Of a DNA stretch of 64,000 nt, positions 3,788-47,959 are shown piece by piece; position 1 is the stretch's first letter, and the number at the start of each line of letters is the position of its first letter. A model generated the notes under the pieces. That model was given only the letters and a program-made list of their open reading frames with translations. It did no database searches and was not told the origin of the DNA. The stretch covers positions 26,756,150 to 26,820,149 of the forward strand of contig NC_134026.1 in NCBI RefSeq assembly GCF_964204645.1. The letters run 5' to 3'. Both the position numbers and the translations under genes were made by a program. This stretch comes from Tubulanus polymorphus. Lineage: Eukaryota > Animalia > Nemertea.

Positions 3788-3818
3788 TTTTAACGTTTCA
3801 TTCTAAAAGACCAAGTTG

Positions 3819-7381: not shown

Positions 7382-10209
<2,828 letters not shown>

Positions 10210-11100: not shown

Positions 11101-11256
11101 TGCTGACTGATTTGACTCTTTAGTTGCCCACTTTTTCAGACCGTCTTTAAGACTAATCAGCTGATGCCAGATAATATTCTATATATAGGGTTATATGCTA
11201 CAGACGTTTTACTTTCTCATTGCACTACCATTTTCTTCGATTTTCAGGTTTTTAAA

Positions 11257-13698
<2,442 letters not shown>

Positions 13699-25430: not shown

Positions 25431-26006
25431 TGAACTACTTAGCAGACGCGCTTTGTTACTCTGCTTCGATGCCAGTGCTATTTTGGGTGTTTACTGTCCC
25501 CTGACTTCCATAGATGAAAAAATATTCAAAAATGTATAGAAAACAATATCAATATAAGTTTCAATATGATTAACTTCGGATCAGGCGGGAATATTTCAAC
25601 GCGTCAGTCCATTATTATCAATCGATTGCTGTTCGGCTCACGGTGGGTATTTTAAAAGAACTATCGCCAGTGTTCTTTTTCGCCCATCGCCTCACAAGTA
25701 TGGAATTAAATCGACATTTAATGCCCTTATCAACAAACCACATGCAGGGACACCAAGGGGCCTTGTTAAGGGAATTAAATATTCAAGAATTTTTCAAAAA
25801 CAGGCAAAAAGTAGGGTTGCAGCAAATTAAGGAACGAATTACAAATGTACCAGCTTGGACGCCGGCAGCGGGTCGGTAGATTACGGATTATGCCACTTTT
25901 ACCCGATCATGACTATAAGAATTAAAAGATAAAACTATTACTTTCTTTTTCAGTTAATGAAATGCCAATTGATCGAATCGAGTGAGACGAACTGCTGATT
26001 TGATCA

Positions 26007-26571
26007 ATGATGAAAAATAAAAGTCGTGCAAAGTCTGGGCCTCTTCCCAAAAGAAAAGTAAAACACCATGAAAAATCTGACAAGTCACAAATCAGCACCA
26101 GCAGCCAAATCATCAGCAAAAATCACACGACAATTCTCCAAAAAATTCCTGGGAACCAAATAGAAACGACAGCTTGCAATGAATTAACCCTATTGGAACA
26201 ACAACACCCGGCAGCCTGCAAAATAATTGATGATGCAGTTGAAAATAAATGCCAAAAGAAAACTATTGACCAAATCCTCCTGTCAGGAGGTCCTCAAGAT
26301 TCACCAACAAAATCCTCAACCCCAGAATCAGTTGTTTGTCCTACAACTGTTACCCTGTCATACACAACTGGTGCACCTTCCTGGGTTTCAACTGTTCCAA
26401 CTGTAATTACATTAAACTATGAATCGATTGCTTCGAATTTGCGCTGCCGCCGGCCAAATTCTGCTTCAAGAAAATCACTAGCACTTTCGGCAATTGGAGA
26501 TGAGAGGGTTTATGAAGAAATAGAACCGTCATTAGAACACGCAGTTCCACCACCGAGAACCATCCATCTTC
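26007..26571 (+). CDS. Variable unit V1, first exon (phase-1 donor)
   Basis: ATG 26007, 188 open codons, ends C|GTAAGT at 26572; joins TTAG|GTCCT (27916) to give RPIPPDTRRYDGTGFS. Confidence 0.6.
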
Positions 26572-29500
26572 GTAAGTTAATGACAAAATGTTTATCTCTA
26601 TTATCTAAATACATTGGAATCTCGTCAATACAAATCTTGAAGTCAAAATTAAAATTGCAGGGTCCGATCTAAGCACTTGTCCGATTGCCCAGGATAAGTA
26701 TATTCTCATCAGGGCAAGTAGGTTATCATTATCACTTGTCCCCCCGGGCTAGTGCAATTTTATGTCACAAAGCTTTTTTCCCACTCGATACAACAGATGA
26801 TAGTACCCCCAATCGGACTGCCTGTGTAGGGCAAGTAGCTTTTGGAGCGGGCAAGCGAAATTTCAGATATGCTTGCCCCACGGGCAAGTGGCTTTTATTC
26901 CTTAGATCGGACCCTGAAATTGTTGTATTAAACAGTTTTCGTATTATCCAAATCTTGATTCTTAGCTGCGGACATGCTGGAAATCATCGTACTGATCGCG
27001 TTTTGTCTTAAATGGAATTGTATTAACGAGGTTCAACTCGAGTAAGAATTATTACTCCAAAGGGAGCATATAGGCATGAGTGAAGCAAAATTAAAATAAT
27101 TCTCCTGACTTATTAAGAAAACGATTTATGGTAATTTTCGTAGTTTTTGTGTTATAGAATTTAGACTAATTAAGCAATCCATCTTGGTAGGCTAATTCTG
27201 AGGAATGGTTGGAAAGCAGGCTTTGCTACATTTCATTTTGCAAACATTCCCTGTCAAGTGCATGCACTCCTCCATTGAATGTTTAGGATACTAAATATTG
27301 CATATGGTAAAAGAGAACTGGAATCATAAAATGTCCAATTGTAACACATTCCACTAAATTTATGTATTTCACACTAATGCGTTCTTCTCTTTTCTATTCA
27401 ACACCTTACTGTAACAAAACAATAGTGCATATAGTAAAGGAACTTATTAATGATTTATGTTAGACTGGGTGTTTCCTTACCACTTCATGAATATACAAAA
27501 ATCAATACACGTTGTATATTTCTCTCATGCAGTTAACATCACATATAAATAACCGACGAAGCTTACACGCTGTGTAATTATCATCAATGTTAAAAGATAT
27601 TTGGATTTTATCACGTATCTATGCATAATCATCAGTTACCTGTATGTGAGTTGTCTGTACCAGCTTATATGCTTTACCTATGGAGAAAGAATATTCCTTC
27701 GGGGTCTGTTTTATCAGTTAATGGTACCACCTGCCTGCAAGGTATGTTGATGACATCCTCATAATCTTATATTAGCTGGATTTCCCTTCATAAAAAAGAT
27801 ATCTTGATGTCTCATATACTGGTACAAGGTACTGGAATTGTTATATTTTTGGTCTGGAGATGTTATTTTTTCCTGTTTTACAAATCACATAGTAATAGTC
27901 TGAATTTATATTTAGGTCCTATCCCTCCTGATACAAGAAGATATGATGGAACTGGATTTTCAAGGTATCTAGAACGTCAGTCTTTGTTTGAGTAAGTTAT
28001 TTGATATGAATTATCTTGAGACTGACTAGGCCTATATTTCACTTAGTTTCTATTGTAGGCTAATGTATTTCACAGCGTTGTGGTTGACAACAAATCACTT
28101 ATTTGCCTATTGCATGTTTCAATCTATAAATCATTCAGTTGATTTTTGTATTCAATAAACATCACACATAAATTTTATTTTCAAAAGAACCTGCGATTCG
28201 GTTTCTGATGCTGGTTACCAGTTACTAGTTATTAGATAAAGTTATGACATGTCTACAGAAAATCATCTTCAGTCTACAGGAAAGTTGGTGGACTGAGGAA
28301 TCCCTTGATATAAAGACAAGGTCCACTGAATGAGTGTTCAAAGCTTTTAAAAATCCACATTCCATTACGTATGAATACAGGTTCTACTAAATTTAACACG
28401 GATCATAATCACCTACATAAAAACTTACATTTCCATGACGGAAACAAAACCCTACTTTGAGGGATTTAAGGACAGAATTCAAGAGAATCTAACAATCATT
28501 TAGAATTATGTTTAATTTGCAGTCGATGGAGAGACAGTTATAAAGAGCTTAAAGAACATAAGATGATTCAGAGGTGAGTTTTAACATTGTTCATGCAACA
28601 ATAACAAACACTTTCTGCATTTTTGGTTTTGGTGTCAATTAGTTCAGGTCTTCTTTGGATCTCATTTTTGACATGACATGATTATGGTCTATTAGTCACA
28701 TAAACACCGATTAATGTTGTTGTATAGAGTCATTTATCAAAAGTTTTTGCACTACGCATTCGTTGTAATTGTTTAAATCTTTTCAATGTAGACTTCATTA
28801 CCTATAATCTACAGGGGTTCTCACGATATTCTTCATGTAAATGTAATAACTTTTATTTGCTATAGATTTCTTGACCTCGTCGTAATATTTGTTGAGCATT
28901 GCTACAGTATATGTTAGCTTAGAACAATCGTTCTGTCTGACTTTCCATGTTTAGTGGTCATTGTGGATTTTTATGGCTCAGTATTCTAATATCACAATTT
29001 TTTTAGGAATGTGATATAAACGACAGATATGAATGGAGCTAGGATTGACTTCTTGTATTAGGAGCTGACTTGTTAATCTTTGTCTTCATAACTTGTGACA
29101 CACTCTTGGATTAAGGTGTCAATAACATAAACAGATGCTGTTTTTATTTTTATGGTGGCACTGTTTGTATTGAAATGCACTAGCATTGTTATGAATAATT
29201 GTTACCTGAACAGTAAAGGACTTTCTGACGAATGGTTTAGTTGTGTTACAGTACAAATATGTATTAAAGTGCATTGCCCATTAGTTATTATCTTATTTAA
29301 TACATCTGAGTAATTGATTTCTGCTACAAAGTCTAATTGAAGGTGAGTGTCTGATATTAGGACTTAAAAGTCATTAATGAGGATATCAAGATTTTTTAAC
29401 TCAAATCAATTTCTATAAATCCGGATTTGTTAATCTACTCTATTCGCTTTTGGGGGAAAATTAGCTGACATATCACCGTATCATCAGTGAATTGAGTTTT

Positions 29501-32500
29501 ATTCGATAACAAAGTCTCAATTGCTACATTGATCTAACATTGAAACAAGATCTGTTATGTTTAGAGGCTGATGCTATTATTCTTGTGCAGTCATAGTGGT
29601 CTGAATCTAATGAAAAGCTTTTAGTGGATCTTGTTCTAAACAATTACGCGACTGGATCTCTCATTCATACCCAGTATCTGCTTCTGTATCAGTTGAAATA
29701 TTTCCCATTCTATTCGCTGGGATTAATCATCGTAGTTGAGCAATTCTTAACGCTACATTTTGAATCAGTTATTTTCCCGGATCATGGAAATTAGGCATGA
29801 ATTTTTCACAAACAGTAATGAGAAATGTGTTCTTGTGCAGATGGAAGGTCATGATGTATCCTTTACAAGAATCTATGGACATAACGGGCTCCGAGTTAGA
29901 TTAGATACGGGACATCGATTGGACAAACTTCCTACTGTACAACAATTGATAAGCCAGCTTACGAAAAAACATGAACAAATCCACCTTCACCGTGTGATGG
30001 GAAAAACTGCAAGAGAAGAAGGACTTAAAACGCGTGATAGCCATTATCAGTCTTATGTGGAGAAAATCGGTCCATTTTATTCACTGACTCCACCTCCGAA
30101 ATTTAGTAAAATCTCGAGTAGAGCTCCTTTATCTGATCGATCACACGCGAAAAAAGTTCGGAAATTCGGACGCATGCAAAGTAAGAAAGACGTCATTGTA
30201 ACGACAGCAGAATTAGCAAAACTCAAACTCAGGGAATTAATGGCTGAAATTCAACCAAACAGGTAAAATGAAATGTCTTAAATTATGAATGTAGGATATC
30301 AGAGGTTAGTATTCATAGCAGCAGTTGTTGAACAATCGTTTTTCCAGCTTAAACAAAAAATGCTGAATGATTTGAGTTACGGGTATTTTCCAACGTACAG
30401 AGCAGAAAAAACTTAAGAGCAGTTTTTTCAGAAATGGAAAAATAAGTTATTTGGCTATTGATGATATTCTATTAGATAAATCATGATTATTTTCTTTTTA
30501 ATTACAAATTTTTGATATAAATGATGATATTTTCATCAATCCAAACACACAGAACTTGAGAAAAGAATATACATATTGTTATTTCAGTTGGTTTCACAAG
30601 CAGATGTTATGTTTGCAATTAATTTCTTCATGTTATGTTTGTTTCCTAGGAGACATTTTTATATAACAAAATCTCGGCGACGACTAATGGCATATTTGAT
30701 CGACCGTCTGTGTTGTCATGAATGTTTGAATACCGGTCTGATTTAATGATGATACTGATTACAAGTTTTCAGCGTATTAAAGTAAAAAATGGTATACTAG
30801 ACATTTGTTCAAACACTATATTTCTCCACATGCCAATATGCTCTTATACCTGTATGCATTATTTTCGATGTGGAGATATAGTATGACTGATTTAAACATG
30901 GGCAGTAATGCAAGGTAAATTCATTTAGATTGTAGATAAGAAAAAGGAAAATTTCATGCACGCATACCCCGTATTAAGCGGTTTAGACTAGAAGAACTAC
31001 CTAATAAAAACATGATTTTTAATTTAAACGTCAATGTTCTATTCTGTCAGCGAGTATAACCACCTATCTGGAGAGTGATAAATGTTTCAGATATCTATAT
31101 AGGGACAATTATTGATATGGGAAAATGTCTTCGTTTTCACATGGTAAACGTATTTCACGGTTGGTTTGTCGCAAATGGTCTTATAAGGGCTATAAATATT
31201 AAATCTTCTGTTAAGTAAGTTTAATCTTGTGCAAGTCAATAAGTCCTTGGTTGATCATATTATTTTTACTGAAATATTAATCGGTTGGACATGTTAGTGA
31301 CATGAAAACCTCATGACTAAGACAACACTGATATATTAAACATAATGGCTACAATGCTATGTACACATGGGAAGTATGAGATAGTGTTGTTATTGGATTG
31401 AAACAAAGTGGACTTTAGCTGCATAGCTGATCATTTCATTGTCAACATTAATTAATATTTCAATGATTTGTTCACCTATTATGGGACATCGATCAGGTTA
31501 TATGCTAGTTATATGATTTTGGTGTCTGAAATGACCAAATATTTGTTCAATTTTAGCGATAAGATGTTATTATCGTGGTTACTTTGGTAAAACTTAATCG
31601 TGGATTGTATAATTACCAAAGGGCAGAATAGAATACTTGTTCTTGGAATATGACATAGCGATCATAGTGCTGTGGAGAGGATAATCGGTATGGATATAAA
31701 AGGAGTTGATCAAGAAACTGAGGTGAAACAAAGCAGTCATCCGATAGGAAATATCAATTCTCAGAAGAATAAAGATATGACGGCTCTACTCGCGAATAAA
31801 ATGATACGTTTGAGATTAATGCATGGAAAAAATCCCTATCATAGTTCATTACCGATTTATCTAGATAACTTGGGGTTATCTTTCAAGAAATCGTACAGAA
31901 AAAAGCCATTCAAGGCTCCGACTACAGCAGTGTTTAGATCACCGGCAACTGTTGTAGGTAAAAAATATAAGATAACCTGTTCAGCGCCTCCGACGTTAAA
32001 AGTGAAATTTGATTTGAAAGACTCGGTGAAGTTTCTAAATGATTTTGTTGTCAAAGCTAAATTAGAACGGTAAGTTATCAATACCTATAGACATTATCAG
32101 ATTTTATGTATTCATTTTTGGTCTAATCATAGATTATAGAAAGTTTCTATATAGTCTATGGCGCAAATTAATCAACTAATTACTGTACTCGTTTAACCTT
32201 TATCGATTATGTCCTGTCTTTGTTATATAAAATTGCTTCTTCAATTTTGCATGTGTTGTATTGATGAACAGGGAAATAATCAACTAGTTTTTTAGTTTGT
32301 GGTCATGGTGAATTTATTTCATTTGGTTTGTTCATTAGCTGCTCTGCCTTCAGTATATTTACTATTCTATCATTGTTTTGCTGCTCGTAGATTTAAAACA
32401 TGGACTTTTGGATTACTACGATATATGTTATTATCAGGCTTCAGGTTTATCTCTACAAATCTCGGTGAAAGATTAGCTTATTTTTTATAATAACAATTTT

Positions 32501-35500
32501 TGTGATCCATTATCATCTAAGGGAATTGTGATTCAATTTCATTTTCTCTTTGCACTGAATTATTTCTAGGTGTATCATGAATTAATTGTTACAAAATTAT
32601 ATGAAAACATTGATTCAACAAAGAGTCCATTAGATATTGCTGGTATACGCCATGCTGTGAAAAAACCTTCGAGCAAAAAATAACTAGGTACACGAAATTG
32701 TGTCATTGATATTGCTTTAAAACCATGCAACTTTTATTATTCCGTAAAATGTGGTATTGTACAAACATAAGAATCTCAGTTTTGAGTAGTAACAGTACCT
32801 AGCTCAGTATAGAGAGCTTACCTTATGAAATAGATTTGCTAAATGCAAGACATTTTATGTGGTATGGACAAGACAGCTTATTGATTGAAGACGCTTTGTA
32901 ATTTTATGCGTTGATAATTGGAACGTGATAAATCAACATGACATCTAATCAATAGACCATTAGGATACATCTTGTCTTTAGATATTAGCTTTGGAATGTA
33001 ATTTCTTTTGCCAAGTTCAATGATAACAAATATGACATACAGAGCTGATTTTTTGTTGAGGAATATTTTGCGAAGAGGATAATATATTCGTGAAGCATAG
33101 GAAATTCTAAGTTGAGTTAGTGCTATGTGGAACTGTAAATATTTGGAAAAGTGATTTATTTGTTAGTGACCAAGGCTTCATTGATTGATGTGTACATTGC
33201 ACAGAAATGTTGATATGGATTTAAGACTCTATGTTTGGAAAATGAATGCATTCTCCGTTATATGGTCGTCAGTTTTGGAGATTTACGCTGTTTCCGACGT
33301 AATTCTGTGAAATTCTGTGATATGTCAAACTTATATCTAAGAAAGAGAGTTGTAAGATTAGCTTCATTTCCTAATTATTTGGAACGTTTCAATAATGCTC
33401 TAGTGAAAGTTCGTTCGAAATATCGGAATTATAGGCTGCCTGCATATAATAGTGATTGCAGCAGGTATGTACTACACATTTATTTTTGAATTAAGTACAG
33501 TAATAATATATGATGAATAGATCTGGACCTATGATGGTACCTTGTCAGATATCAGTCATTTTACAGTAGATGTCGTATTGATCTTGCAATTAAGGGCTGA
33601 TGATCTGGTTGTAAGGCAGGTTTCAATTAAATGTATTCTGGCTAATGAAAAGTAATAGGGAAATTAGGACAGTGCTACAGGCCTCATATCAGGTTAACCA
33701 TGGACGTATAAACTTGACGTACGTATAAACTAGTTTATACGTCCATGGGTTAACAGATTATGCTTTTCTAGCATTTTATGGCCCAAAGAAATAGGTCCAA
33801 CAACGGAAGAGAGTATTCCAGACCTGTTTATTATATGTAACAGCTTAGAATGATCATTCTGAATGATTACTCCAAGATAAATTGTCGATATCACTATGGT
33901 GATTTGTTGCTCCAAATATAAAATTTGAAAACATCCAACCACAGTTGGGTTAAGTGCTTTCCATATGAATTGCCAGGACATCTTCATTTGGTAATGTCTT
34001 TAATTATGTCAGTGTCATACCTTGTCTTTTATATGTGTGTCAATGTAAATTTTATTTATAAATAGTGTCATTCATGTTGCGAACAGTTAGAGACTCTCAC
34101 TGGGGTAAAATATTCCAAAGCCAACCAACTAGAGCGTAGTAAATTGAAAATTAACATGTACAGAATATAGCATAGCTCGTTACTCGCGTCTACAGTTATA
34201 TAGAATAGTTCGAAAATAGTTTACTAATAAAAAGAATGAATCGTTATCTTTGTCTTCCACCGGTTCATTCTCCAGGACCGTACATGGAGAGATATCTGTG
34301 GTAAGTTCATCTTCATTCACTTAATGTTGTTGACCTGAAATCAGAAATTATCGTTTTCAATACTTTTTGTCGATAAATATAGTATTTTTGTTTTGATAAT
34401 GAAATCAACTGTAATACAGGTATACACTCTTATCAGTTGCTGGACATATCTGTATAAGCGCTCATTGAAATATTGACCATACTTCTATACGGAGCTCATA
34501 TTCTTATTTTCCACTCAATCAGTTCTATTCAGGGGCAATCAAGGCATTTGATTTACAAATAATGTGACATGAAAAGAAAGTGATTTTTTAACGGTTAGCT
34601 GTAAAATGAATCGCTTTGAATGTCAAGGAGTCGGGAATCTATTATATAAGCATTTTAGGCATTGACGTCGTTTACAAAGAGAAAGCTTATTTCATGTTTG
34701 TGCAAGGTGCATACGACTAGTAGATCTACATGTAGTTGGGATGGATTAATCAGTGTTTTATATGAGTTTGAGGTGACACAAATATTATTCATCTGAAATA
34801 TGGCGTCACAAACAACATATAGCCAAGATGTTTGTCATCAACATGATTAGCCGTGTACTTTGTGACATTCTTGAAATTCCGTGCTATGTTTCTACTACGG
34901 ACGTACTGTCTTAACCATCGAGCTATTAAATGCAGCATTAGACCGGTGCGATGCAAGATTAATGATTTTCTGTTCGTATAGCAACAGTTAGTTTGAGAGA
35001 CCTGTACAGTTCATCTTAACAATAATCTTCTACCAGCTAATGAATGGATAAATTCAAAGGAATGGAACTATAAGACCGAATCAAAGATAATCGACTAGCT
35101 TTTATCACTAGACGACTAGATGAACGTGTGAGCGATATGAATTTTCGTTTGCCAGATTTAAAACAATCTAAATTTGTAGCTGCATCTATGGTCATTCCGT
35201 ATGACAGTCTAAAACTAAGGTTTCGTTCTGACCCAACACCAGCTGAATTATTCATAGAATATCACCTACGTACAAGGTAAGATTTTACGATAAAGATTTG
35301 CACTTAGTGCTTGCGGTACACTATTCAGAAGTATAAAGCAGATAGTATAGGGTCTTAGAATTAAGATATTATTTCACAATGTAGATTCTAAAGGCAAGAT
35401 GGATTTCTAATGTTAGAAATAGGAAGACTCGATAGAACGTTTATTGTTTGTGAACTTACTCATAGAGGGCAGGTCTGTGTTTAACCAGAGCTCAAAGCTG

Positions 35501-38500
35501 TCCTCATAACTCAAAGATATGAATGTTACTCTCTCATTTTTTCTTACCTTGTTTCATTAATTCACAGTTTTCTTAAGTCAGGTTTTCTCAAATTCAGGTG
35601 AAGTGTACTTTGTGAAGTGTACCATTTACTTTGCTGAATGGGAATTTTAAAAATCTTCATCATCAACTTCAAAGATACAACCAGTAGATGTCTTAAAGTC
35701 AATTTCATTCAGCTGTTACTGTATTCTATTTAGTAATAACTGCTGCAAGTTCATCGACTAATGTACACTGTTCTACTGCGTCTTTTAGATCCTTCTCAAC
35801 ATCGCTACAAAGTTTCTGTAAGGATTCTGTCACGTTTTTCAATGTATTTATTTCCAATCTCATCTGTTTGGTCAATGCTCGTTCCACGGCTAATTCATTC
35901 TCACTTACTTCCAGTTTTGTAACTAAAACCTCATTTTCTTTTTTCAGCATTTTGATGAATTCTGTATTGCTTATCTCTTCCATATTTTCAAACTGTATTG
36001 ATGGGGTAAAATCCGTTTACAGTTCCGCTCATTGCTGTATCCAGTCTACTAATGGCGTGCTTTATGAAGAAATTCTACCTGATTTAATTTTGTTGTTCAG
36101 TCAAGCTTGAACCTCAAGAGATTTCGATAAGATCTTATTTTGAGGACATGTATTTCAGATAATTGCTAGATTGCTTATGATTTAACAATAATTTACTCAT
36201 TCTTTTCCACTTTCTTAAGCATGCCTCAAGGTTTGGATCACTGCAATAGTGAAATGCATGATTACATATCTTTTTTTAACTGATATTCTATACAAAATGA
36301 TAAGTTCAATGAATTATTAATGAATTAATCATCTAATGGTATTATGTTCGACATGGTTGAGGGCAGGTAGGAGTATCGATACAATACAATTTGACATACC
36401 GGGTAACTACAATACCAGTACTTGTTTTATGTGTCTATCATTTGCAGCACTTTCAGATTAATGGATTTCATTCATTACTGATGACAGATTATGGCTATGT
36501 TATATCGCTTATGTTCTGCAGTCTTTCATTCTTTATGTTCGTCGTTACTTGTCATAATTTACACAACATATAATATTAACTGTGAGAAAAGTTTTTCTAT
36601 CCTGATATAATGCGCTGATCAGAAGAATCGATTTGCGTGTGACACTGACCAATTTATTTATTCCGCATGCCGAGAAATCTCTGAGTAAAACAGCTTTCAA
36701 TGTTCAGACATGAAATATCTACTGTATGTGGTGTGTGTGCGTTGTATTCAGTAATCATTTCGAAAAAAGTAGTCGGAACTTGTACATGGATTAATCAAAC
36801 CACGGATTATACGGTCGGGTTTTATGGATTATGGATTATCTTTTTGTTCTACTCTCATTTAGTTGAGCTGCAACAGTGCCGCCTACTGGATGCCTATAGA
36901 ATATTATAAATCCTGGCATTTCATGACTTTGTGACCTACGTGATTTGAGCTATGTTCGTCATGAACCTTAATACAATGGGTATTAAGTTACCTGATAATT
37001 GTTGCCAGTACAATCAGTCAAGCAAACAGTGAACAGTTGATATTTCAACCGCTGACAGCCAATTATCAATAATAATTCGATTCTGCAACTTGATGCTGTG
37101 CGTAGACATGGACTTTAATACGATGCTTAGATTTGAAAGCCTGAAAGTTTTTGGAGAATTTGCTGGCAATGATAGAAGATTTTGTATGAAATTATACCAG
37201 ATCTCTAGTTTATTGTGATAATAGTGAAAGGATTTATTTGCTATAACGTGGAATTATTTGATGTGTATATTATGGCTTGGCGGTAAAAGGCCTATCAAAT
37301 GAAAGTGTTTGCCTTGTGTGGAGCTTTTGGGATATTTGTTTTACGACTGATTATAATCTAGAACTTGGATATTAGATAATAGTTTGTTGTGTATGAAAAG
37401 CATAGGTTCATCATCACAAAAAATTCGTTTCATTGTGGATTGGAGTTCAGTTATTTCTATTGGTGACCTGACTTTTTCTCAAAATAATGACAGCTTTTAG
37501 GATTGAATAGTCGTATTCTGTTCACAATAGTTGTATAGATTTGATTTCAAAGAAATTGCATCGAGCGTTATTGTAAATACGTCTTCGTTTTCAATATGAC
37601 GCCTTTGAAGCGGTATTTGAGACTATATGCCAGTCGAGACAGGACAGTTGTCACTAAATTACCGACAATAAACAACTGTACAGATACGAATTCTACTTTT
37701 CGTAAGGATAAAATGCAATCATTAGCAATGGATGAAATAGTCAAACGAATGAAACGTAGACAGGATCATGAACGAAAGTGGATTCCGATTAGTGTTTGTA
37801 CGGTTTAGTAAGTATTCCACTTGTTCATTGAAAATGGAAGTTTTTTTTTGTATCGGGTTAGACTCGGGTCATCTAATTTATCATGTATTGTACCATTGAA
37901 ATATGTTTGAAATCACTTTTTGTTCATTATTCATTGTGTGAACATGTTGTAGAACTTTGAAATTTGTGCAGGTGGTTTTTTTTAGCATAACAATGATACC
38001 GGCCGGTAGAACAAGCTGCGTTAAACATCTGTGCGTTATTTTAAGAATTTTTGAAGAGCGAGCGTGTTCTCTGAGAACGATCGGACCCCGATATTTTAGC
38101 TATTTCGTGACATGGCTGTACCCTGCTGTCACATTCTTCAAGTGTCAACTGAATAACCCTCTTTTTGTAAATTTCTAATTATGAAGTAAAGAACTCCTAG
38201 GGAGGGTCACCTAGTAGCATTTAGTGAGGACTCGGATTTCGCTCAGAAATGTTTTTGGAGTCATGTAGTTAGTCACGTTATCACGCTATTTTTGGTCACA
38301 GACACTGGGAACCTGCTTGAAAAAGTTTTATTTCAATCGCATAAAGTATTAATTTGTAGGTAATTGATTGAGCCCTGAGAATTTATCTTGCATGCATTTC
38401 CATGTTTACGTATTTCAATGTGTATTAAATATCTATACAAAAGCCAGTTGCGTTCAGAATAAAACATGAAATGTCTAAACAAGGTTTTAATTATAAAATC

Positions 38501-41500
38501 TTGTAGCAAAAAGGACACTATATTTACCTATCATTTATCTGATATTTGAATTAAGTTTAAGCCGGTTAAACTTCAATGAACAAATACAATTTGCTGGATT
38601 ATCTGAATACTGGTATATATGTAAGTGTTTGATCGAAACGAGATGGATTAATCATTTCCATTTAAACAGGAGGGGAATATTAAGAAAGACCAATTTTTAT
38701 GATGACTGAAATACATAAAGTTTCGTGTCACGTGAAAAGGAGAACTAGGATGTTTAAAACTATTTATGGACAACAGAGTAATTCAGTATTCTTTATCAAT
38801 CCATTTTTGCGGTATTTGGCAAATCGTCCAAAATCAAGTCCAAATCTTCGGTTCTTTCGCAGGTATGTAAAGTTCGATACTTATGGAGCGATGAAAAAGT
38901 CTAAAAGTTGGTTAAAGTTAGGACTTCTTATCTTTTTTTGTTTTGAAAACATTCGCATTTTTCTCTGTTACACTTAAACAGACATGTTAGAAAAAAGCGA
39001 TTCCATTTTTGTGAGAAGTTTTTATAGAAACAGTCTTCTGAAGGTAGACGTTACACTTGAAACCTGTTCTTATTTCTGACAATAATTAGTTTAGTTTTTT
39101 TTTCTCCATTTACAGACGACTTCATTAGAATATGGGCAACTAGTACTGTAGGTTATGAATCACGACTGTATAGTAATATAAATGTTATTGATAGACCATA
39201 TTGCGTGATAAATCACCCATAAACCACTGTGAATGGTATGGACTACCATTAGTGATTCAATTTCACTAGAAGAAGATGCAAGGAAATTATGATGACAATT
39301 CAAGTAATTGTAAACCGATGATTGATTGTTCTTGCAATACTTTCACTTGTTCCATTTCAACCTCTGAGATCATACTTGCAGAAGTATTAATTGCCAGTAG
39401 ATTTAGTCAAAACTGCTTATATAGAAAGGACTCTGATAGTTCATTCTATTGAACAGATCCAGATTTAGATTCTGTTTACGCTATATTATGATTGTCACGC
39501 AGGCTTAATGAATTCAAATTTATTCTTTCATTTGAGTGGATACATTGTTCAGATTATTGACAACTACGTATATCACCTAACTAAATCTGTTTATAATATA
39601 CGTAGATTTAATAGAGTTCGTTGTGGATATATTCACTCCGTGTTAAATATGGATATACCTTCGCTAAGAGCTCCTCGATATTTACAAAAAGTAATAAACC
39701 CAGAATTTCCCTGGATTTATAGATTGCGTATTGAATCCAGCTTTCAGTAAGTAATTTTTAATAGCTATTCTGACATTTTCTTGCGCTTTTATTCTTCAAT
39801 TTAGTATGCAAAAGTAAAATAAAGAAAAGAAACTTTTTTGACTTTTGACAAATTGCAAGCCATTTGTCAAGTAGTATTTTGTGTGAGTTTCAATGATAGG
39901 AGGCTACAGTTGTACTGTTGGGTGATTAATAATTCCAAAAATGGTTTTAAATCCTTAGACTGGTTAAATTGCAGAACCAGAGTAGTAGCGATATCTTGAC
40001 AACGAGATTGGCCCCTGGGTTTTGGTTTTGTTCTGTGTTGATTTCGGTAAATCAATGAACAATAATACTAGCGCAAGACCTGGATTTTCTTGAGTTTTTT
40101 TATCAATTCTTTATATTATTATTCAACGTGACGTATTTCTAGGAGGCATCGTATTGAAATCAATGACAGTCATGAGAAATACTGAGATGATAATGACATT
40201 TACTTTGTTTACTTTCCAAATTTGACCTTGCCATAATTCAATATACCTGTCTATATAGACATATTTTTTCACAGCGGAATAAAGCTTATTACCGATAATG
40301 TTTTATTGCTAGTTGTGGGTCACCCGTCAATGCTTCGTGATTATATAGGCCCTCTCATATCACAGGTCTGGCCATTTAAAAGGGATTTATGATCTATCCA
40401 CTATATTTCGTTGCTAAAATGTTACAAGAGCAGAACGAATATTAAATCGTAAAACCGTGTTAATCGTCCAGACCTAAAAGCATTTGTATAGCAACTACTA
40501 ATTCAAATAACCTGTAGGAACTTACTGTAAAGGATTTAGTTAAAGGATCTACGTAGACAGATTCTCGCATATCGGAAGAAATTTGGAACGATTGGTTATC
40601 GTTCTTTAAAATCTACAATGTTGCATGTAGGATGCACTGCCGGGATAACTAGACGTCATTTTCATAAAGGCAAATTGCCACAGATTTTGTTTATCAGGTA
40701 TGACTTAGCCTAGGGTATTTGAAAAAAGTTTCGATGTGACAATTTGTTGGTGAATTTAGGAGATTTCCCACACTATACTGAATTATCAATATACGTAATT
40801 GCATAACTATTTGGACTGAGTAAGGATGTATAAAGTGAGAATTTTGAATTGATAAGTGTTGTGTCCTACGTCTCATATTTCATTATTGGTCGTCAGGGAG
40901 TTGTTGCTATTGCCGTGTAATGCTTCATGCCTTGATTATAATGCAATCTATAATTCAACCTGTATCTGGATACCTGCAAGCGTTGCATCGAGCTCTAATC
41001 CATTTCTATACTGTTCGGATAGGAAACGTAGTTGCCATGGCACTTGGACATGTTTTATTGCCTCCATTAACGTAAGATTTGGATTAAGTTTTATTATCCT
41101 CTATAATGTTCAGGTATTTGCGTGAGTTGTTTTTTGTAGATACATGTTTTGTAGTAATCGATGATCTAGTTATTGGACGCAGGAAGCAGCAGCCCTTACT
41201 GAGCTGTCCTCAAAACTAAGCTTTTCAATGCAAATACCGGTATATACTCTTGCAGCATCCTTTTGAATTATGATTTGATATATGTATACAAATGTGTTAT
41301 ACATGTACAATACTGAATCCCTAATTCGACATGATTGCAGCATCCTCCCTGTAAAATTTACTTTTTCCACTTCAAATATCATCTATGAATTGTACTTTCA
41401 GTTCAACTTCTGCAGCTAATGGATATCCACCAGCCGAACTTGTAACTCCTCCATCGTATAACAATGAATTCAGCAAACGACATAGTATACCAGCAGAAGA

Positions 41501-42517
41501 GTTTAGACACAGCGGTGAACCATCAGACCGGGAACGTAGACGCTCTTCGAAGGACTCTGATCATCGTCCGAGTAGTCGCAATAATAAATCTCCTAAACAC
41601 GATACTAAAGGTAATAGACACCTATAAAACAGTTGAATGTGCTGAATGTAGGTGAAATTTTGTTTTCATAACATCTTGTTGTATGTTTTTTCATTCCAGT
41701 TTTAAATTCTCTTGAGAAAGTGACGCCGAGAGACAAAGAACGCGACAATCGCGACCGAGATAAACCTGAAAAGCCTCTCAGCATCGATCGTACCTGTGCA
41801 GAAGATGGTGAAAGTACCGGCAAAGAAACTGTAAAACCTTCGAAACGTGGCGGATATCAAAATAACTATTTCAAACCTTTAGGAATGAGAAACAACCTTT
41901 CATCTGGAAATGGTGGGAAAGAAGTTCAAACAAAAGCCACAACCAATCATTCTACCAGTAAGTTTGATTATTTTACACATTCTCATTCTTTCCTTTTTGT
42001 TCTTGCCTGTTTTTCTCCTTGCTGCCAATTGCCAATACTTTTTTAGTAACACACCGGTCATTTTTCTCTGCCTTCAGATCGAGAGCAGGATGACCTAGTA
42101 GCCATGGGAACTCTGTGGAAGTCCACTCCCGGAAATAAGACTAATGGTAATATTGGTCGTTCTTTTTCTATAGGGAGCAATAACGGACCATCACAGTCTC
42201 TATCTAATGGATATACTGGTGGAACATTGACATCTCAGCGAAGATTTTCTAATAAATTTGGGCAGCAACCTCGCCAACAGAAAGATAGTAAGAAATTAAT
42301 CTATAAATTCTTTATCGTCAAGTCTCAAAATGACTTTCGTCGTAATAATGTGATGTTTTATGTTTCAGCTGAACCGCGGTATCCAGACCCATTATCCGGT
42401 GCTTCAGCATCATTTCAGCAAAGATTAGCCGAATTAGCAGCTTTAGAATCGGAGACTATACGGTGGGAGAGGACTAGAAAACTTAAAAAACGTTCTAAAC
42501 AAGAGACTTCGTCTTGA
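26007..42517 (+). CDS. C8orf89: C8orf89-like gene with an array of alternative first coding exons and a shared constant region
   Basis: The C-terminus YPDPLSGASASFQQRLAELAALESETIRWERTRKLKK resembles, from memory, the conserved C-terminal block of vertebrate C8orf89 (SDPLTGA...RL..IA.LE.DTIR.E). Longest path 26007-26571, 27916-27964, 28523-28573, 41402-41610, 41700-41957, 42078-42287, 42369-42517 is phase-consistent and stop-free. Confidence 0.6.
26658..26916. mobile_element. 259-bp MITE with 16-bp perfect TIRs and 6-bp target-site duplication
   Basis: CAGGGTCCGATCTAAG ... CTTAGATCGGACCCTG, flanked on both sides by AAATTG; internal GGGCAAGT-like motif repeated about 5 times. Confidence 0.85.
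27669..27741 (+). CDS. Candidate alternative first exon feeding exon 27916 (phase 1)
   Basis: MLYLWRKNIPSGSVLSVNGTTCLQ, then G|GTATGT; 73 nt = 24 codons + 1. Confidence 0.35.
27916..28573 (+). CDS. Two small internal exons of V1 (27916-27964 and 28523-28573)
   Basis: 49-nt exon (phase 1 to 2, donor AG|GTATCT) and 51-nt exon (TTTGCAG acceptor, SRWRDSYKELKEHKMIQ, donor AG|GTGAGT, phase 2). Confidence 0.7.
29784..30262 (+). CDS. Variable first exon V2 (159 codons + 2 nt)
   Basis: MEIRHEFF...AEIQPN then AG|GTAAAA, phase 2; the ORF stop is the TAA inside the donor. Confidence 0.7.
30838..30914 (+). CDS. Candidate variable first exon V3
   Basis: MLLYLYALFSMWRYSMTDLNMGSNA then AG|GTAAAT, 77 nt, phase 2. 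Confidence 0.4.
31117..31214 (+). CDS. Candidate variable first exon V4
   Basis: MGKCLRFHMVNVFHGWFVANGLIRAINIKSSV then AA|GTAAGT, 98 nt, phase 2. Confidence 0.45.
31690..32069 (+). CDS. Variable first exon V5 (126 codons + 2 nt)
   Basis: MDIKGVDQ...VVKAKLE then CG|GTAAGT, phase 2. Confidence 0.7.
32305..32444 (+). CDS. Candidate variable first exon V6 (hydrophobic)
   Basis: MVNLFHLVCSLAALPSVYLLFYHCFAARRFKTWTFGLLRYMLLSGF then AG|GTTTAT, phase 2; weaker donor. Confidence 0.35.
33262..33464 (+). CDS. Variable first exon V7
   Basis: MVVSFGDL...(MSNLYLRKR)...YRLPAYNSDCS then AG|GTATGT, 203 nt, phase 2. Confidence 0.6.
33698..33748. mobile_element. 51-bp palindromic mini-element with a 5-bp flanking duplication
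   Basis: CCATGGACGTATAAACT ... AGTTTATACGTCCATGG with GTTAA directly on both sides. Confidence 0.7.
34236..34300 (+). CDS. Variable first exon V8
   Basis: MNRYLCLPPVHSPGPYMERYL then TG|GTAAGT, 65 nt, phase 2. Confidence 0.6.
35137..35276 (+). CDS. Variable first exon V9
   Basis: MNFRLPDLKQSKFVAASMVIPYDSLKLRFRSDPTPAELFIEYHLRT then AG|GTAAGA, 140 nt, phase 2. Confidence 0.65.
35726..35983 (-). CDS. Antisense nested ORF encoding an 85-aa coiled-coil peptide
   Basis: ATG-initiated, E/K/L-rich heptad-like MEEISNTEFIKMLKKENEVLVTKLEVSENELAVER...; minus-strand donors AG|GTAAG (~35548) and GA|GTAAGT (~35459) lie downstream. Confidence 0.4.
   Translation of the reverse strand: MEEISNTEFIKMLKKENEVLVTKLEVSENELAVERALTKQMRLEINTLKNVTESLQKLCSDVEKDLKDAVEQCTLVDELAAVITK
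37596..37807 (+). CDS. Variable first exon V11
   Basis: MTPLKRYLRLY...TKLPTIN...WIPISVCTV then TA|GTAAGT, phase 2; splicing would turn the apparent TAG stop into TAT. Confidence 0.65.
38699..38862 (+). CDS. Variable first exon V12
   Basis: MMTEIH...(MFKTIYGQ)...PFLRYLANRPKSSPNLRFFR then AG|GTATGT, 164 nt, phase 2. Confidence 0.6.
39508..39746 (+). CDS. Variable first exon V13
   Basis: ...MDIPSLRAPRYLQKVINPEFPWIYRLRIESSF then CA|GTAAGT, phase 2. Confidence 0.6.
40618..40697 (+). CDS. Variable first exon V14
   Basis: MLHVGCTAGITRRHFHKGKLPQILFI then AG|GTATGA, 80 nt, phase 2. Confidence 0.55.
40920..41071 (+). CDS. Variable first exon V15 (alternative ATG at 41037 in GCCATGG context)
   Basis: MLHALIIMQ...MALGHVLLPPL then AC|GTAAGA, phase 2. 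Confidence 0.55.
41402..42517 (+). CDS. Constant region of the C8orf89-like gene: exons 41402-41610, 41700-41957, 42078-42287, 42369-42517
   Basis: The first exon opens with a phase-2 acceptor (TACTTTCAG|T TCA ACT) and has no internal Met. The remaining exons join in phase 1. S/R/K-rich disordered sequence ends in a conserved-looking helical C-terminus. Confidence 0.85.
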
Positions 42518-43504: not shown

Positions 43505-44082
43505 TTAGAATAATGAGTTGAGGTGGGATCCACCAAAATTATCTTCAAACATCGTCGTTCCTGTGAATTGTTCATAATCAAAATTTTCGATCGATTGATT
43601 TCGTACGATGTTATGATTACTATTGCGACCATCAACTGGGGCACAGTTTGTACCTGCGCAACCATTCATATGGCTCCAAAAGCGTGTAGTATCCGTATAA
43701 GCCATATGATTTGAAAATAGATGTCCAGATACAGATGAAGTTTCAGTGGTTGGAAGAGATCGACCACTACAGGCTGAATTATCGCAATCGGTATACGATC
43801 CAATGTCATCAGAACTGTAGTTACAGAAGTTTTCAGGTTCATCCTCGATTTCCCGCTGGAGCTGTTTAATATAACACAGTGCGCTGTGTAAGATTTCCCC
43901 TTTTGAAGGTTTCACGTAGTGCTGCAATGTTGGGATATGTTGTTCCAGTTGAGTGAACGCTTGGTTGATGAGACTCACGCGTTGACGTTCCCGCTGATTA
44001 CGTCGATGAACACTTTCCGGTGCTCGTTCACTATGTGGGATGTGACGACGCTTTCTTCGTTTCTTCACTTTTTCTCCGTTTC
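43505..44082 (-). CDS. Achaete-scute-like (group A) bHLH transcription factor; start codon not resolved
   Basis: HIPHSERAPESVHRRNQRERQRVSLINQAFTQLEQHIP...SKGEILHSALCYIKQL. No in-frame ATG upstream; acceptor TTTTAG at ~44083 implies an upstream exon. Confidence 0.85.
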
Positions 44083-45735
44083 TAAAATACGTACATCAAA
44101 ATACATCATTTAATTTCAATCAACCAAAACGTTTTTATTTCTATTTAGAAATCAACCATGAAAATCAGTAAGAAATCACTACTTAGTATCAAAAGACAGC
44201 TTTCGATTGAATGTGGCCGATTGTAGAATAAAATTTCCGGATTGCAAACTCTCCACCGGTGTTTTCCGAAATTACGGAAAGCGTATGCCTGGTGGAGACG
44301 AAACATCCCAGAAGAGAATCCCGGAATCGATTGAAACCTGCCCAAGTTCAGTTTACGAAATTTTTTATAATTTCAAAATGGTGATATCATCATTATACTT
44401 ACAATTTATTATCACCTTGAGTTGCGCTGATAGCAGTTGAATTGATAAAGGAAACCATGATGTTGAATGTTTGAGAACGAATCTGGATTTGAGGGATTTT
44501 TGCCTACCTGGGATTATATATATCAGGGTATGACCCCCCTCCTGTGAAGGGGGCTGTAGTGGTCCCCAATTATCCGAGGTTGGATGAATTCGCGTGGCCG
44601 TCTAAGTACATGGTGATCAGCGTGTGCGAGATTCACACCTTTAGTGCAGCAATACACACCATATTAGATTAGATAATTACCTCTGATTGTCTTTTCCTAT
44701 CGAACATCAAAAGATAATCTCCATCTAAACAAGGCATTCGGATGTTGTAGTATTTTTATTTACGGGACTCAGTAGGACCGATTTGTTTCATGCATTTATC
44801 CACTTGAAGAATCACGTTACGACGAGAATGACCAGATCAAAGGGTACGTTCAAAATCGGGCGCAGGTGATGAAGAGGAGATTTTAACATTTATTTTCTTA
44901 GTTATCGTCCGTTGGCGCTGAAATATACTCTAAGAAAGATATCAGATGCACAACTACGCGATAATATTATACATCTTTTGAACATGACAAACATAATTTT
45001 CAACATACAAACCAAGTATTCAATCTATCCGAGGAAAATTTGTCTCACATCAGTCAACTGCCACAGATACACGGAAGCTTCCTTTTCTGAATAAAGTTTT
45101 GTTTCGTTCTTATTGTGTCCACTGATTACTTAATTAGATGTTTGGGTTGATATCAATTGCAAATGATCAATTGGATTTTGTGATTATTCACTACATGTAT
45201 TTGCTGCAACGACGCTTTTTTCTCAGGTTTTCCACGCAAAAACTCATATTGACGCTTTTAAATATTAAGTTCGAAATATACATGTTTATGAAATGATAAA
45301 CTGGAGCGGATCGGAATAAAAATGGCACAATAGTTTCTGTTTGTTTCGGATTGTATGGTGTCGTGTCTTTATAAACAAAAAGTTCCTCCAATAATTCAAA
45401 ACCCGGTTGATGATTTCTTGCTGACGTTTCTAATTATCGTCATATTCATTACCATCTGCCTGGATACATTATTTCTCTCTTTGAAGTAACCGGTTTAATA
45501 AAGATAAATTACCGTCTTCATTGATCAATTGTCTATGATTATTTAAATGCATAAATCGATATTCAACAACTCGGTTGGAATGAACACCTGTTGTTTGATA
45601 CACGTGGGGTTCAATAATTAGACAAACACATTCATAAATCTTCTCTGCATTTTTTTTAATGAAATAAATAATGATCTATATTCAACGTGCGCTATTACAA
45701 AACAAACATTACAAGTATATAATTTGAATCAGTGA

Positions 45736-46161
45736 TTACAGTCCTTTGCTTCGAAGAAAATCCGCCAAAAGCATCACATTTCTGTTGCATTCCTCTGCAT
45801 TCATGGATCCCGAATGAACTCCTACGATAATAACTTTAAAAGTTTGACACACAGTGAAGCCGCTGGTTCCCGTATCCACGTCGAAATGTTTTGCGAAAAT
45901 GCCTTGTCCGTCTGCTATGGTGACCCTGTAGTTTTTACCTTGTATGAAGAGGTTATCTTTATAAATAGAATTCGGGCAGTTAATACCTTTTCGTATAGCT
46001 TCTAACTCGTCTGGATTTACCCAAAAACCGTCACTTGCACTTAGTTTTCGGTGTCGGTCTCTCGTATATATCGCTGCTCCAGAAATGTGACCACATCCAA
46101 TAAGAATATCTCTGATATATGTATCCCACGATTCTAAATGAATATTTGGTGTTACTGCCAT
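45736..46161 (-). CDS. Profilin-family protein, intronless, divergent copy A
   Basis: SWDTYIRDILIGCGHISGAAIY...LFIQGKNY...VIIVGVH...CNRNVMLLADFLRSKGL matches the profilin fold pattern. Confidence 0.88.
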   Translation of the reverse strand: MAVTPNIHLESWDTYIRDILIGCGHISGAAIYTRDRHRKLSASDGFWVNPDELEAIRKGINCPNSIYKDNLFIQGKNYRVTIADGQGIFAKHFDVDTGTSGFTVCQTFKVIIVGVHSGSMNAEECNRNVMLLADFLRSKGL

Positions 46162-46793
46162 CTTTTATGCCCCCGTAAAACAGTTTTCTATTGGCTTAAT
46201 GCCTGCGTATGTTTTACCACTTGTCTCAAATGTTCTGTTGTCAATGGTACGTATGTTTAACAAACATTTTATGCAGCTCACAGTGACACTTGACCTGCCT
46301 TTCAAAGCACAGTCAAATCCTGCAAATCGAGCCCCTTAACGTATATAAATATCGCGTAAAAGGCGATCAAGCGTCCATTTAATCAACACCGTGGCTTTTC
46401 TAATAATACCGCATTAATTAGGATAAAATTGATCCATGAAATACGCTGTCACAATAAATCGCAACTACGCAGAATTTTGTCCCGTGCCGATACACCTTGT
46501 ATTTCCCATAAATATCAATGTATTAACACGATTTGTTACTTACTTAATTATTGAATGATTAGGTGAGTTGCGCCGAGCATATATTAAATGATTTATCGTG
46601 TTGGGCCTTTTTCATTAGAATACTTATAGTTATGTCTCGACTTCTGTCCCATTCGATGACAAGCTACAAGAGGATGGCATTTTACCACTCCGACTTGGAG
46701 AGGAATCTCACAAAGTATAAACAGACGACAAAATATCACGGAAAGTTATGAAATTGATATCATTTTTTGATAATAACCTTTCATAAAGTATTA

Positions 46794-47013
46794 GGCCAAA
46801 AAAAATTGATACCTTGTTTCTCCGCTCTGCTGAGCTTAAATGTTGACCCGGCCGGCCGCCTATCTACCCTATACATTACTTTTTTTTAAATCGTGATCAA
46901 TTTCACCATAACAGACCCGGCCGCTATAGAAATGAACTGTTTATAAATTTTATCATACTTTACAAAAATGACCCGGCCGCTGCGGAGAAACAAGGTATCA
47001 TTTTTGTTTAGCC
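46794..47013. mobile_element. 220-bp MITE with ~32-bp TIRs and TTA/TAA flanks (Zator- or PIF/Harbinger-like)
   Basis: GGCCAAAAAAAATTGATACCTTGTTTCTCCGC vs GCGGAGAAACAAGGTATCATTTTTGTTTAGCC; internal GACCCGGCCG three times. Confidence 0.8.
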
Positions 47014-47545
47014 TAATCATAATCATTCTACATGTGTAATAAGCATTTTGAACCATTTTTATCAGACAATATCATAGCTTGGTTTTTTATAGTAAAAGTG
47101 ATTATGACTTTACAAATAACATTTTGATTGTATATACTTTAACACTGGATGAATAGCACGTACAATTAATTGCATTTACAAAATTCATGTGAGAGTCGGT
47201 CTCAAAAGAATCATTATTCAACGCTGCTGATTCACACACAACAGTTCAAGTTTTTATTCACCAATTTACCCATATTTGTGAAAATATTTATATTTAGGTA
47301 CAGATTGAAAGCCTTTGAGCCTATATTTGTGTATCATATAAAGACGTACATTTAAGCCTGAAAATTCAGCGCAATTATTACTGTGTTTGCGGGCGGTCAA
47401 TGAATAAATTTTGAATGGACGCTACTCGTAATTCGTCCATGAAATTTAATCTTTTGGTTCAACAAAACGATGTCAAAACAACAGTACTAGTAGCAAGAGG
47501 TTATAATCTATATACGAATGTATTCAGAATCAAACTTTATGAAAC

Positions 47546-47959
47546 TCAAAAATATTTGTCTCTCAAAAAGTCCCCTAATCTTACGACGGCATTGCCACAA
47601 TTAGTGATGTGATATGGTTCTTCGTATGTTCCAACGATGAGACAGGTTTTACATCTTGAGATTGTGCATCCCGTGTTGAATGATTTGGCAACCATCACAT
47701 CTGGTAAAATCCTGATAACTGTGTAATGTACACCATTCACAAAAATACCGGTACGAAAAACTTCCTCAGAATCTAAAAATCCGCTTCCAATGTGTTTGAT
47801 TTCCTCGTGGCTAAGCCCAAATCCATCAGTAGATGCCCACTTCTGACCTCTGATGCTGTAAATGGCACACTTTGTAACATAACCAGTAGATGTAAGACAC
47901 TGGTCTAAAATATCCAACCAAGATGTAATTTTTGACATGATGGCCTCAGCCAGTACCAT
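47546..47959 (-). CDS. Profilin-family protein, intronless, divergent copy B
   Basis: SWLDILDQCLTSTGYVTKCAIYSIRGQKWAST...GIFVNGVHY...CLIVGTY...CGNAVVRLGDFLRDKYF; first ATG at 47959. Confidence 0.9.
   Translation of the reverse strand: MVLAEAIMSKITSWLDILDQCLTSTGYVTKCAIYSIRGQKWASTDGFGLSHEEIKHIGSGFLDSEEVFRTGIFVNGVHYTVIRILPDVMVAKSFNTGCTISRCKTCLIVGTYEEPYHITNCGNAVVRLGDFLRDKYF

Follow-up and report, generated by a model that had tools for sequence, protein, structure and literature searches.

An array of alternative first coding exons in frame with one C8orf89-like constant tail in the nemertean Tubulanus polymorphus

The locus described here lies in a window of 64,000 nucleotides of the Tubulanus polymorphus genome. 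The first-pass annotation had proposed 12 to 16 unrelated first coding exons, all splice-compatible with one constant region. That interpretation of a swappable first-exon array is supported: the variable-start layout is almost certainly real, and no fewer than six distinct first coding exons read in frame into a single constant tail (Table 1). The array and its phase-2 layout stood; the count of 12 to 16 is provisional at the level of single exons, since neither RNA joints nor significant homologues were found for those at 30838, 31117, 32305, 34236, 36344, 40920 and 26974.

Table 1. Features of the variable-start locus (positions in the window)
Feature	Position	Strand	Codons	Remarks
Distal first coding exon	26007..26571	+	188	phase-1 donor; start of long upstream chain; sequence only
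Candidate first exon	26974..27041	+	22	phase 2; frame and donor alone, unsupported; no homologue
Candidate first exon	27621..27741	+		ATG 27621 or 27669; phase-1 donor fits exon 27916; no homologue
Internal exon	27916..27991	+		phase 1 in, phase 2 out
Internal exon	28523..28573	+		phase 2 to 2; start of single RefSeq model P0001 inside
Variable first coding exon A	29784..30262	+	159	
Candidate variable exon	30838..30914	+	25	frame and donor alone
Candidate variable exon	31117..31214	+	32	frame and donor
Variable first coding exon B	31690..32069	+	126	RNA joint to 41402; transcript back to at least 31557
Candidate variable exon	32305..32444	+	46	weak donor; frame alone, no homologue
Variable first coding exon C	33262..33464	+	67	
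Candidate variable exon	34236..34300	+	21	strong donor, score 5.7; no N-terminal homologue
Variable first coding exon D	35137..35276	+	46	
Candidate variable exon	36344..36366	+	7	strong donor, score 5.8; too short for homology test
Variable first coding exon E	37596..37807	+	70	
Probable variable exon G	38699..38862	+	54	borderline
Probable variable exon H	39508..39746	+	79	borderline
Variable first coding exon	40618..40697	+	26	RNA joint to 41402; transcript back to at least 40317
Candidate variable exon	40920..41071	+	50	frame alone, no homologue
Constant exon 1	41402..41610	+		phase-2 acceptor; RNA joints, P0001
Constant exon 2	41700..41957	+		RNA joints
Constant exon 3	42078..42287	+		conserved short middle motif; alternative acceptor 42174
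Constant exon 4	42369..42517	+		DUF5537 C-terminal segment (one helix and basic tail), stop; 3′ UTR to at least 43061 (extent from contig)

All 15 ATG-to-donor frames listed earlier (13 main ones plus those at 26974 and 36344) were confirmed to start with ATG, to be free of stops, to end at GT and to have a length of 2 modulo 3, and all run in frame into constant exon 1. The phase-2 end claimed for exon 28523–28573, which is 51 nt long, was also borne out. The frame at 26007 joins this layout indirectly: donor 26571 is phase 1, and phase 2 is reached by way of exon 27916–27991. An additional candidate ATG exon, absent from the first-pass annotation, was found at 27621/27669–27741, with a strong phase-1 donor (score 5.0) and a 40-codon frame. 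The constant exon had been described as lacking a start codon; an in-frame ATG is present at 41385, 17 nt upstream of the 41402 acceptor, and a contig of RNA run X3 (40839–41427) crosses this ATG unspliced.

Such frames might be chance frames in a long intron, found by seeking the pattern. A fixed donor rule applied to 28.58–41.40 kb gave 43 plus-strand and 27 minus-strand donors. Upstream of the plus-strand donors, ATG frames of 20 or more codons were distributed over phases 0, 1 and 2 as 2, 5 and 13, and those of 40 or more codons as 0, 2 and 8; the corresponding figures for the minus-strand control were 4, 3 and 1, and 1, 0 and 0. Dinucleotide shuffling (300 shuffles) produced means of about 2.2 and 0.5 frames per phase for the two length classes, the best phase never exceeding 8 and 4, respectively, and five other non-coding stretches showed no comparable phase excess. 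The phase-2 enrichment therefore holds against shuffles, the minus strand and other stretches. A weight-matrix version, with generic donor values, agreed (1, 2 and 8 by phase; 14 donors scoring 3 or more). GC content was higher in the exon than in the 150 nt past its donor for 18 of 18 exons examined; the same held for 17 of 30 decoys. When 191 plus-strand and 192 minus-strand frames were scanned without bias, the top five were all exons of the C8orf89-like gene, the match of 26007 being to a constant-region stretch. About two phase-2 frames of 20 or more codons are expected by chance, which may explain some short frames without independent support (26974, 30838, 32305, 36344 and 40920). For the array as a whole, chance is excluded by the rule-based excess together with the RNA joints and cross-phylum matches given below, and it is already refuted for six exons; we give it hardly any credence.

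The RNA evidence derives from run X3, which was classed as RNA on account of its GT..AG joints; runs X1, X2 and X4 show none of them. Splicing other than 28573 to 41402 was found, as donors 32069 and 40697 are both joined to 41402 by GT..AG joints. Direct splicing of a variable exon to the common exon, as in protocadherin-type clusters, was thus seen for 2 of 14 donors, in contigs of one run of one study that has no library record; contigs cannot show a start site, and the missing X3 cover at the other 12 donors was not counted as evidence. The donor of the 40920 exon is crossed unspliced by an X3 contig.

Comparison with other animals revealed counterparts of exons A to E among the alternative N-termini that this gene has in molluscs or in a second nemertean, and coding-type conservation is present for these five. 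Orthologue HMMs detected exon A (E=6e-12 with orthologues only; BLASTP to a snail isoform E=9e-9), B (E=1e-4), C (E=1e-11) and D (E=4e-10), each with 0/200 shuffles as good and C also with 0/100, and HMMs built from relatives alone ranked these four first among 3512 six-frame fragments. No second copy of exon A was found in the genome. The last residues of exon E are in exact register with the ends of mussel and scallop isoforms (0/2000 shuffles); its local test gave 6/200 shuffles. Two further exons are borderline in homology tests, namely G, compared with snail and abalone isoforms (5/200 shuffles; HMM E=3.5), and H (5/200 and 2/100 shuffles; E=0.39); orthologue HMMs for types E, G, H and J were not significant. 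Exon 31117 faintly resembles one N-terminal type of molluscs (35/200 shuffles, HMM E=1.1), the end-anchored p=0.02 of exon 30838 is not significant among 15 tests, and no significant homologue turned up for the RNA-supported exon 40618. For 6 of the 14 exons, and for 26974 and 27621, no evidence other than frame, donor and composition was found. Pfam gave no family above cut-off in those variable peptides that were scanned, and the ESM Atlas no match for exon A. The conserved stretches are short blocks in the variable peptides and two blocks in the tail.

The layout itself is also found in relatives. Counted by eye, mussel has 12 unrelated N-terminal types among 16 of its 19 isoforms and abalone 7 among 8 of 11; records of amphioxus, sea urchin and hemichordate and of the annelid Dimorphilus each show three unrelated starts. 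The variable-start layout is present in protein records from annelids, echinoderms, hemichordates and amphioxus. Among 57 distinct mollusc ends the junction residue was never K, Q, E, M or W, against a background of 23%, with 12 other residues present, as is predicted from a phase-2 joint into a pyrimidine; in the annelid and deuterostome sets, 1 of 17 had one of these residues. In Lineus, three starts pass through an extra common linker, and the phase may therefore differ there.

For the chain of exons upstream of the array, whole-protein alignments gave only E=0.1 and E=0.047, and the orthologue HMM was not significant. A profile of 12 relatives' long forms matched exon 26007 weakly (residues 128–141, E=0.1), and this exon has no cover in X3. 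The peptide of exon 27916 matches record P0209, hemichordate P0163 and amphioxus P0186 (0/100 shuffles); against amphioxus alone, the result was 2/300 shuffles. A profile gave E=0.047 for this exon.

The constant tail, suggested earlier to be disordered and basic, is predicted to form such a linker, which ends in a single helix (residues 243–271 of P0001, the sole confident element) and a lysine/arginine-rich end. An abalone type-A isoform was modelled by AlphaFold with a pTM of 0.17, which implies that start and tail do not fold compactly together. Modelled as a homodimer, the C-terminal segment scored 0.02, giving no answer either way; searches of PDB sequences yielded 0 matches, and the ESM Atlas only sub-threshold Dendrin matches at 0.77 for the tail. 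The C-terminal segment passes Pfam PF17690 (30.1 bits, cut-off 28.4), the match covering only profile positions 114–156 of 160; in 29 relatives it begins at position 66 or later. The gene is filed as C8orf89-like on this segment, the rest of the model being unmatched. The genome search returned one DUF5537-segment match at E<=1, a lower bound as only the best candidates were scored, consistent with single copy and orthology. Use of acceptor 42174 in constant exon 3 skips 96 nt in frame and removes 32 codons including the middle motif, whose columns are near-invariant; both joints occur in X3.

Taken as a whole, the locus is probably best explained as a first-exon array with promoter choice and docking or targeting peptides. 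Separate promoters would pick the first coding exon of one gene, every choice being joined to the same constant tail, and we consider it likely that the exons are mostly under separate promoters. Alternatively, the exons could be internal cassettes that exclude one another, preceded by one or a few non-coding leaders and chosen by splicing. This would fit donor 29342 (score 7.9), which has no ATG frame, with acceptor 29769 immediately ahead of exon A, the acceptor at 31659, which shares the frame of exon B, and the molluscan isoforms that chain some exons (snail X1–X3; mussel X1, X4, X5 and X9). However, X3 contigs continue 133 and 301 nt upstream of ATGs 31690 and 40618 with no joint or loose end, one of them across 31659, and 10 of 14 exons have no acceptor of any phase in the open frame upstream of the ATG; choice by splicing is quite improbable. 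Judged from the nucleotide sequence, chaining within the nemertean array is also unlikely; an in-frame phase-2 acceptor upstream of the ATG is missing from 13 of 14 exons when judged by a filter that recovers 7 of 7 real acceptors (it replaced a stricter one, which missed 3 of 7 on its pyrimidine threshold). A blastn comparison of the 300-nt regions upstream of the exons found chance-level matches only and no common promoter motif. A ciliary-gene reading gained no support: near-matches to the RFX X-box consensus were scattered, and none lay systematically upstream of exons.

Under promoter choice, each cell type would receive its own short peptide for docking or targeting, attached to an otherwise identical protein. 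The C-terminal helix may bind one common partner and the variable peptides, several with an alternating hydrophobic-basic strand, different partners or sites; the optional middle motif of constant exon 3 would add a second switch, and one locus would yield an adaptor family, by analogy with plectin N-termini. The strand motif occurs in 3 of 16 exons (p=0.01) and was defined after seeing the data, and some variable peptides may resemble PP1, calcineurin or HP1 docking motifs. We lean slightly towards variable peptides that serve as address or docking labels. The exons might instead be mainly promoter modules for the constant tail, with most N-terminal peptides passengers or stability tuners, as is suggested by the half of the exons that lack a detectable homologue, RNA-supported 40618 included, and by forms consisting of little but the tail (the 3-residue start of the RefSeq model, 2–3 residues in relatives P0038 and P0039, and ATG 41385). 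Against this, five peptides are recognisable between nemertean and molluscs and that of exon 27916 out to deuterostomes, and conserved peptides are unlikely to be mere passengers; we regard such a role as unlikely, and address or docking labels remain our preferred reading.

Textbook variable/constant clusters are vertebrate and are built from duplicated exons. In the window, the best of 120 peptide pairs among the variable exons reached 1/200 shuffles, which is chance level, and no DNA duplication was found; of 36 exon pairs compared by profile, just A-B (E=0.0014) and B-J (E=0.0002) gave any hint of relatedness. The exons are thus unrelated in pairwise comparison, as previously claimed, but profiles hint at a common short strand motif in some of them. 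Tandem variable first exons of one phase before common constant exons are a likeness to the protocadherin, UGT1A and GCNT2 clusters; in these, the variable exons are paralogous, similar in length and encode a folded domain (PMC1885805), whereas those of the window range from 7 to 188 codons with no pairwise or DNA paralogy. The Ugt1, Gcnt2 and Ugt2a layouts are described as vertebrate-specific in that paper, unlike the present layout, which spans protostomes and invertebrate deuterostomes (PMC1885805). Plectin (PLEC) has nine coding variable first exons, each of which is spliced on its own to one shared exon, and its N-termini have been shown to set localisation (PMC3695321). Many short dissimilar first coding exons leading to one common exon are a likeness to plectin, a 500-kDa multidomain protein, whereas the constant chain here has 274 residues and is disordered with one helix, and individual exons of the array are traceable from one phylum to another. 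The array resembles the plectin type, with unrelated starts, not the protocadherin/UGT1A type, with paralogous ones.

The 5′ exons of TCF4 enter at several internal exons, whereas most first exons of the window converge on one acceptor. The number of N-termini is comparable, 18 being reported for human TCF4, a transcription factor with known domains, from alternative 5′ exons (PMC3137626).

The present array is made of dissimilar exons and appears in records from nemerteans, molluscs, annelids, echinoderms, hemichordates and amphioxus. The phyla between which single exons are traceable split more than 540 million years ago, and retention over such a span implies a separate job for every start. 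Tentatively, the first-exon system may predate the protostome-deuterostome split and have been kept exon by exon, with a dozen non-paralogous docking peptides promoter-coupled to one small conserved helix, as a cell-type address code for a common partner; the vertebrate descendant of this system would be C8orf89. With so little folded content, the variable peptides and the helix are directly testable, and the array offers a first handle on human C8orf89.

The layout had been thought undescribed. Isoforms do stand in automated annotations of relatives, namely Mytilus galloprovincialis LOC143067591 (X1–X19), Gigantopelta LOC121374232, Haliotis rufescens LOC124149403, Lineus LOC135486260, Branchiostoma LOC109480907, Diadema and Patiria; these orthologues have the layout of variable starts and constant tail in common with the window gene, all are named 'uncharacterized', and several of their starts are homologous to window exons. 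For T. polymorphus itself, the single RefSeq model P0001 misses the array. No publication on these isoforms was found: DUF5537, PF17690 and three locus ids were absent from the main texts searched, and the matches listed for alternative first exons conserved between molluscs and annelids included none of relevance. Human C8orf89 appeared only in association-type mentions among the matches listed; one listed paper mentions both C8orf89 and cilia. Vertebrate C8orf89 (DUF5537) has a C-terminal segment of about 45 residues in common with the window gene, and the profile of relatives reaches the gecko 'C8orf89 homolog' with E=5e-11. Two gecko C8orf89 isoforms differ by one residue near the start.

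All 15 ATG-to-GT frames that the first-pass annotation had listed upstream of the acceptor at 41402 were found to end in phase 2, each open into the first constant exon. To avoid selection by eye, donors between 28.58 and 41.40 kb were called by a fixed rule and the ATG frames upstream of them were counted. The plus strand (43 donors) gave 2/5/13 frames in phases 0/1/2 at 20 or more codons and 0/2/8 at 40 or more, versus 4/3/1 and 1/0/0 on the minus strand (27 donors). In 300 shuffles the best phase never exceeded 8 and 4, respectively, so the proposed phase-2 enrichment (13 and 8) held. About two phase-2 frames of 20 or more codons are expected by chance, and one or two short exons may therefore be false. 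GC content was higher in the exon than in the start of the intron behind it for 18 of 18 exons examined, versus 17 of 30 decoys. The layout itself is shown and has two tiers: phase-1 starts (26007 and candidate 27621) lead through exon 27916 to exon 28523; as many as 14 starts in phase 2 lead directly to 41402. A further ATG frame upstream of 26007 (25700-25875), with a weak GT at its end and neither Pfam match nor homologue, may be an additional start.

Isoform sets of the same gene were found in gastropods, bivalves, a chiton and the nemertean Lineus, already present in automated annotations. Counted by eye, 12 unrelated N-terminal types occur in 16 of 19 isoforms of Mytilus galloprovincialis and seven in 8 of 11 of Haliotis rufescens; in Lineus, three starts run through an extra shared linker. 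Compared with 106 distinct N-terminal parts, exons 29784 (A), 31690 (B), 33262 and 35137 scored above 200 of 200 shuffles; for exons 37596, 38699 and 39508, respectively, 6, 5 and 5 of the 200 shuffles scored as high. The remaining testable exons, three upstream exons not counted, showed no significance. HMMs built from relatives only ranked the same four exons top among 3512 fragments (E=6e-12, 1e-4, 1e-11 and 4e-10, in that order), and the other 14 such profiles had no significant match there. The end of exon 37596 is exactly in register with that of a type from mussel and scallop (0/2000 shuffles), the sole clear match among 15 tested. Coding-type conservation in relatives is borne out for these five exons. 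The array is real and ancient.

K, Q, E, M and W, which together account for 23% of nearby residues, were all absent from the position before the constant block in 57 distinct mollusc ends, where 12 other residues occurred. A phase-2 joint into a pyrimidine would give this pattern; the phase in molluscs is inferred from protein rather than DNA.

Four sequencing runs of one study cover the stretch, none recorded as RNA; one of them, X3, was taken as RNA from its GT..AG joints. In X3 the constant introns were removed and two joints from variable exons (32069>41402 and 40697>41402) were present, so splicing to 41402 is not confined to donor 28573. The contigs begin at 31557 (133 nt 5′ of the ATG of exon 31690) and 40317 (301 nt 5′ of that of exon 40618), free of any further joint or loose end; such contigs are unable to show a start site, and X3 reaches these two donors, not the other 12. 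Another X3 contig, from 40839, is unspliced over 41402, with an in-frame ATG at 41385. In a second run, X2, a contig goes back 330 nt at 40055-40384, suggesting a tandem duplication allele.

The favoured reading follows plectin, in which short N-terminal sequences determine localisation according to a review (PMC3695321): promoter choice would equip a common helical effector with docking peptides that differ by cell type, with separate promoters, partners and a targeting role. Alternatively, the exons might be promoter modules and their N-terminal peptides passengers. Cassette choice behind one shared leader is another reading, since some exons are chained in molluscan isoforms and leader exons are possible ahead of A and B; however, 13 of 14 exons have no in-frame phase-2 acceptor upstream of the ATG, which argues against a chain of exons in one transcript. 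A very strong donor at 29332-29342 (score 7.9), which lacks an upstream ATG frame, and an acceptor at 29769 precede exon 29784; the former may mark its non-coding leader or a micro-exon.

The exons had been called unrelated, and pairwise protein and DNA tests found no paralogy among those of the window, but when the types of relatives were compared as profiles, A, B and a third type gave hints of a common strand of alternating hydrophobic and basic residues (E=0.0014 and 0.0002 in 36 pairs). The array differs from protocadherin/UGT1A-type clusters, whose variable exons are paralogous (PMC1885805), fits the plectin type in layout (PMC3695321) and resembles TCF4 in its number of N-termini (PMC3137626). 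Searches by family name, Pfam accession and three relatives' locus ids found no paper, and none of the C8orf89 papers examined describes such an array.

A profile run against 1.84 billion representatives had 301 matches, 150 of them listed. Of the ten looked up, four came from a sea star, crinoid, sea urchin and hemichordate, two from annelids, one each from amphioxus, a coral and a gecko ('C8orf89 homolog'), and one was unnamed. An orthologue in the annelid Owenia was confirmed. Different parts precede a shared constant start in amphioxus (3 types among 13 proteins), Diadema (3), Dimorphilus (3), hemichordate-like records (3, two unnamed) and the sea-star and crinoid sets. One of 17 annelid/deuterostome junction residues was of the forbidden kind, from a two-member set with an ambiguous boundary. 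Exon 27916-27991 matched protein P0209 and hemichordate and amphioxus long forms (0/100 shuffles), and exon 26007 reached only E=0.1 against the profile of these long forms. Exons A-H had no clear match in amphioxus (best 8/300 and 10/300 shuffles); exon-level orthology is thus shown among spiralians and, beyond them, for the upstream chain only.

The window is animal DNA with about 35% GC. Pfam DUF5537 scored above cut-off in the last exon of the locus, and this segment has one match genome-wide among the best candidates scored. The nearest named protein is P0001 of the ribbon worm Tubulanus polymorphus (98% identity to a 49-residue query), the single RefSeq model, which starts inside exon 28523-28573 and matches the four constant exons by eye. 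The constant part opens with a 224-residue linker, half S/T/N/G/Q/P and net basic; after it come a single helix, predicted with confidence, and a basic end. Invariant columns across 23 relatives fall in the helix and basic-end segment, and a second near-invariant block lies in exon 3. There, an alternative acceptor at 42174 in X3 removes 32 codons in frame (42078-42174), the conserved middle motif among them; both forms are present. A mussel-like record, P0143, lacks the whole exon carrying this motif. Unnamed proteins P0204, P0206, P0212 and P0213 (767-1465 residues) share this C-terminal segment, preceded in them by long basic N-termini.

Features in and around the array
Feature	Position	Strand	Remark
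Src-type tyrosine-kinase gene cluster, several genes	1-13700	both	one exon confirmed by Pfam
Neighbours: bHLH gene, two single-frame profilins, two further genes	43505-44095, 45736-47959, 20266-21787, 49237-53989	-, -, +, +	
High-copy MITE-like element	26653-26921		21-nt terminal inverted repeats; intron directly after exon 26007; covered very deeply by 4/4 runs
Short hairpin-type repeat	33688-33758		27-nt arms; high-copy in runs too
85-codon frame inside array	35726-35983	-	weak coiled-coil Pfam matches below cut-off

The same set of neighbours presumably includes a purple-acid-phosphatase-like and an exportin-2-like gene. Two X-box-like sites, both near-palindromic, lie in candidate exon 40920 (41031-41044) and over the middle motif (42098-42111).
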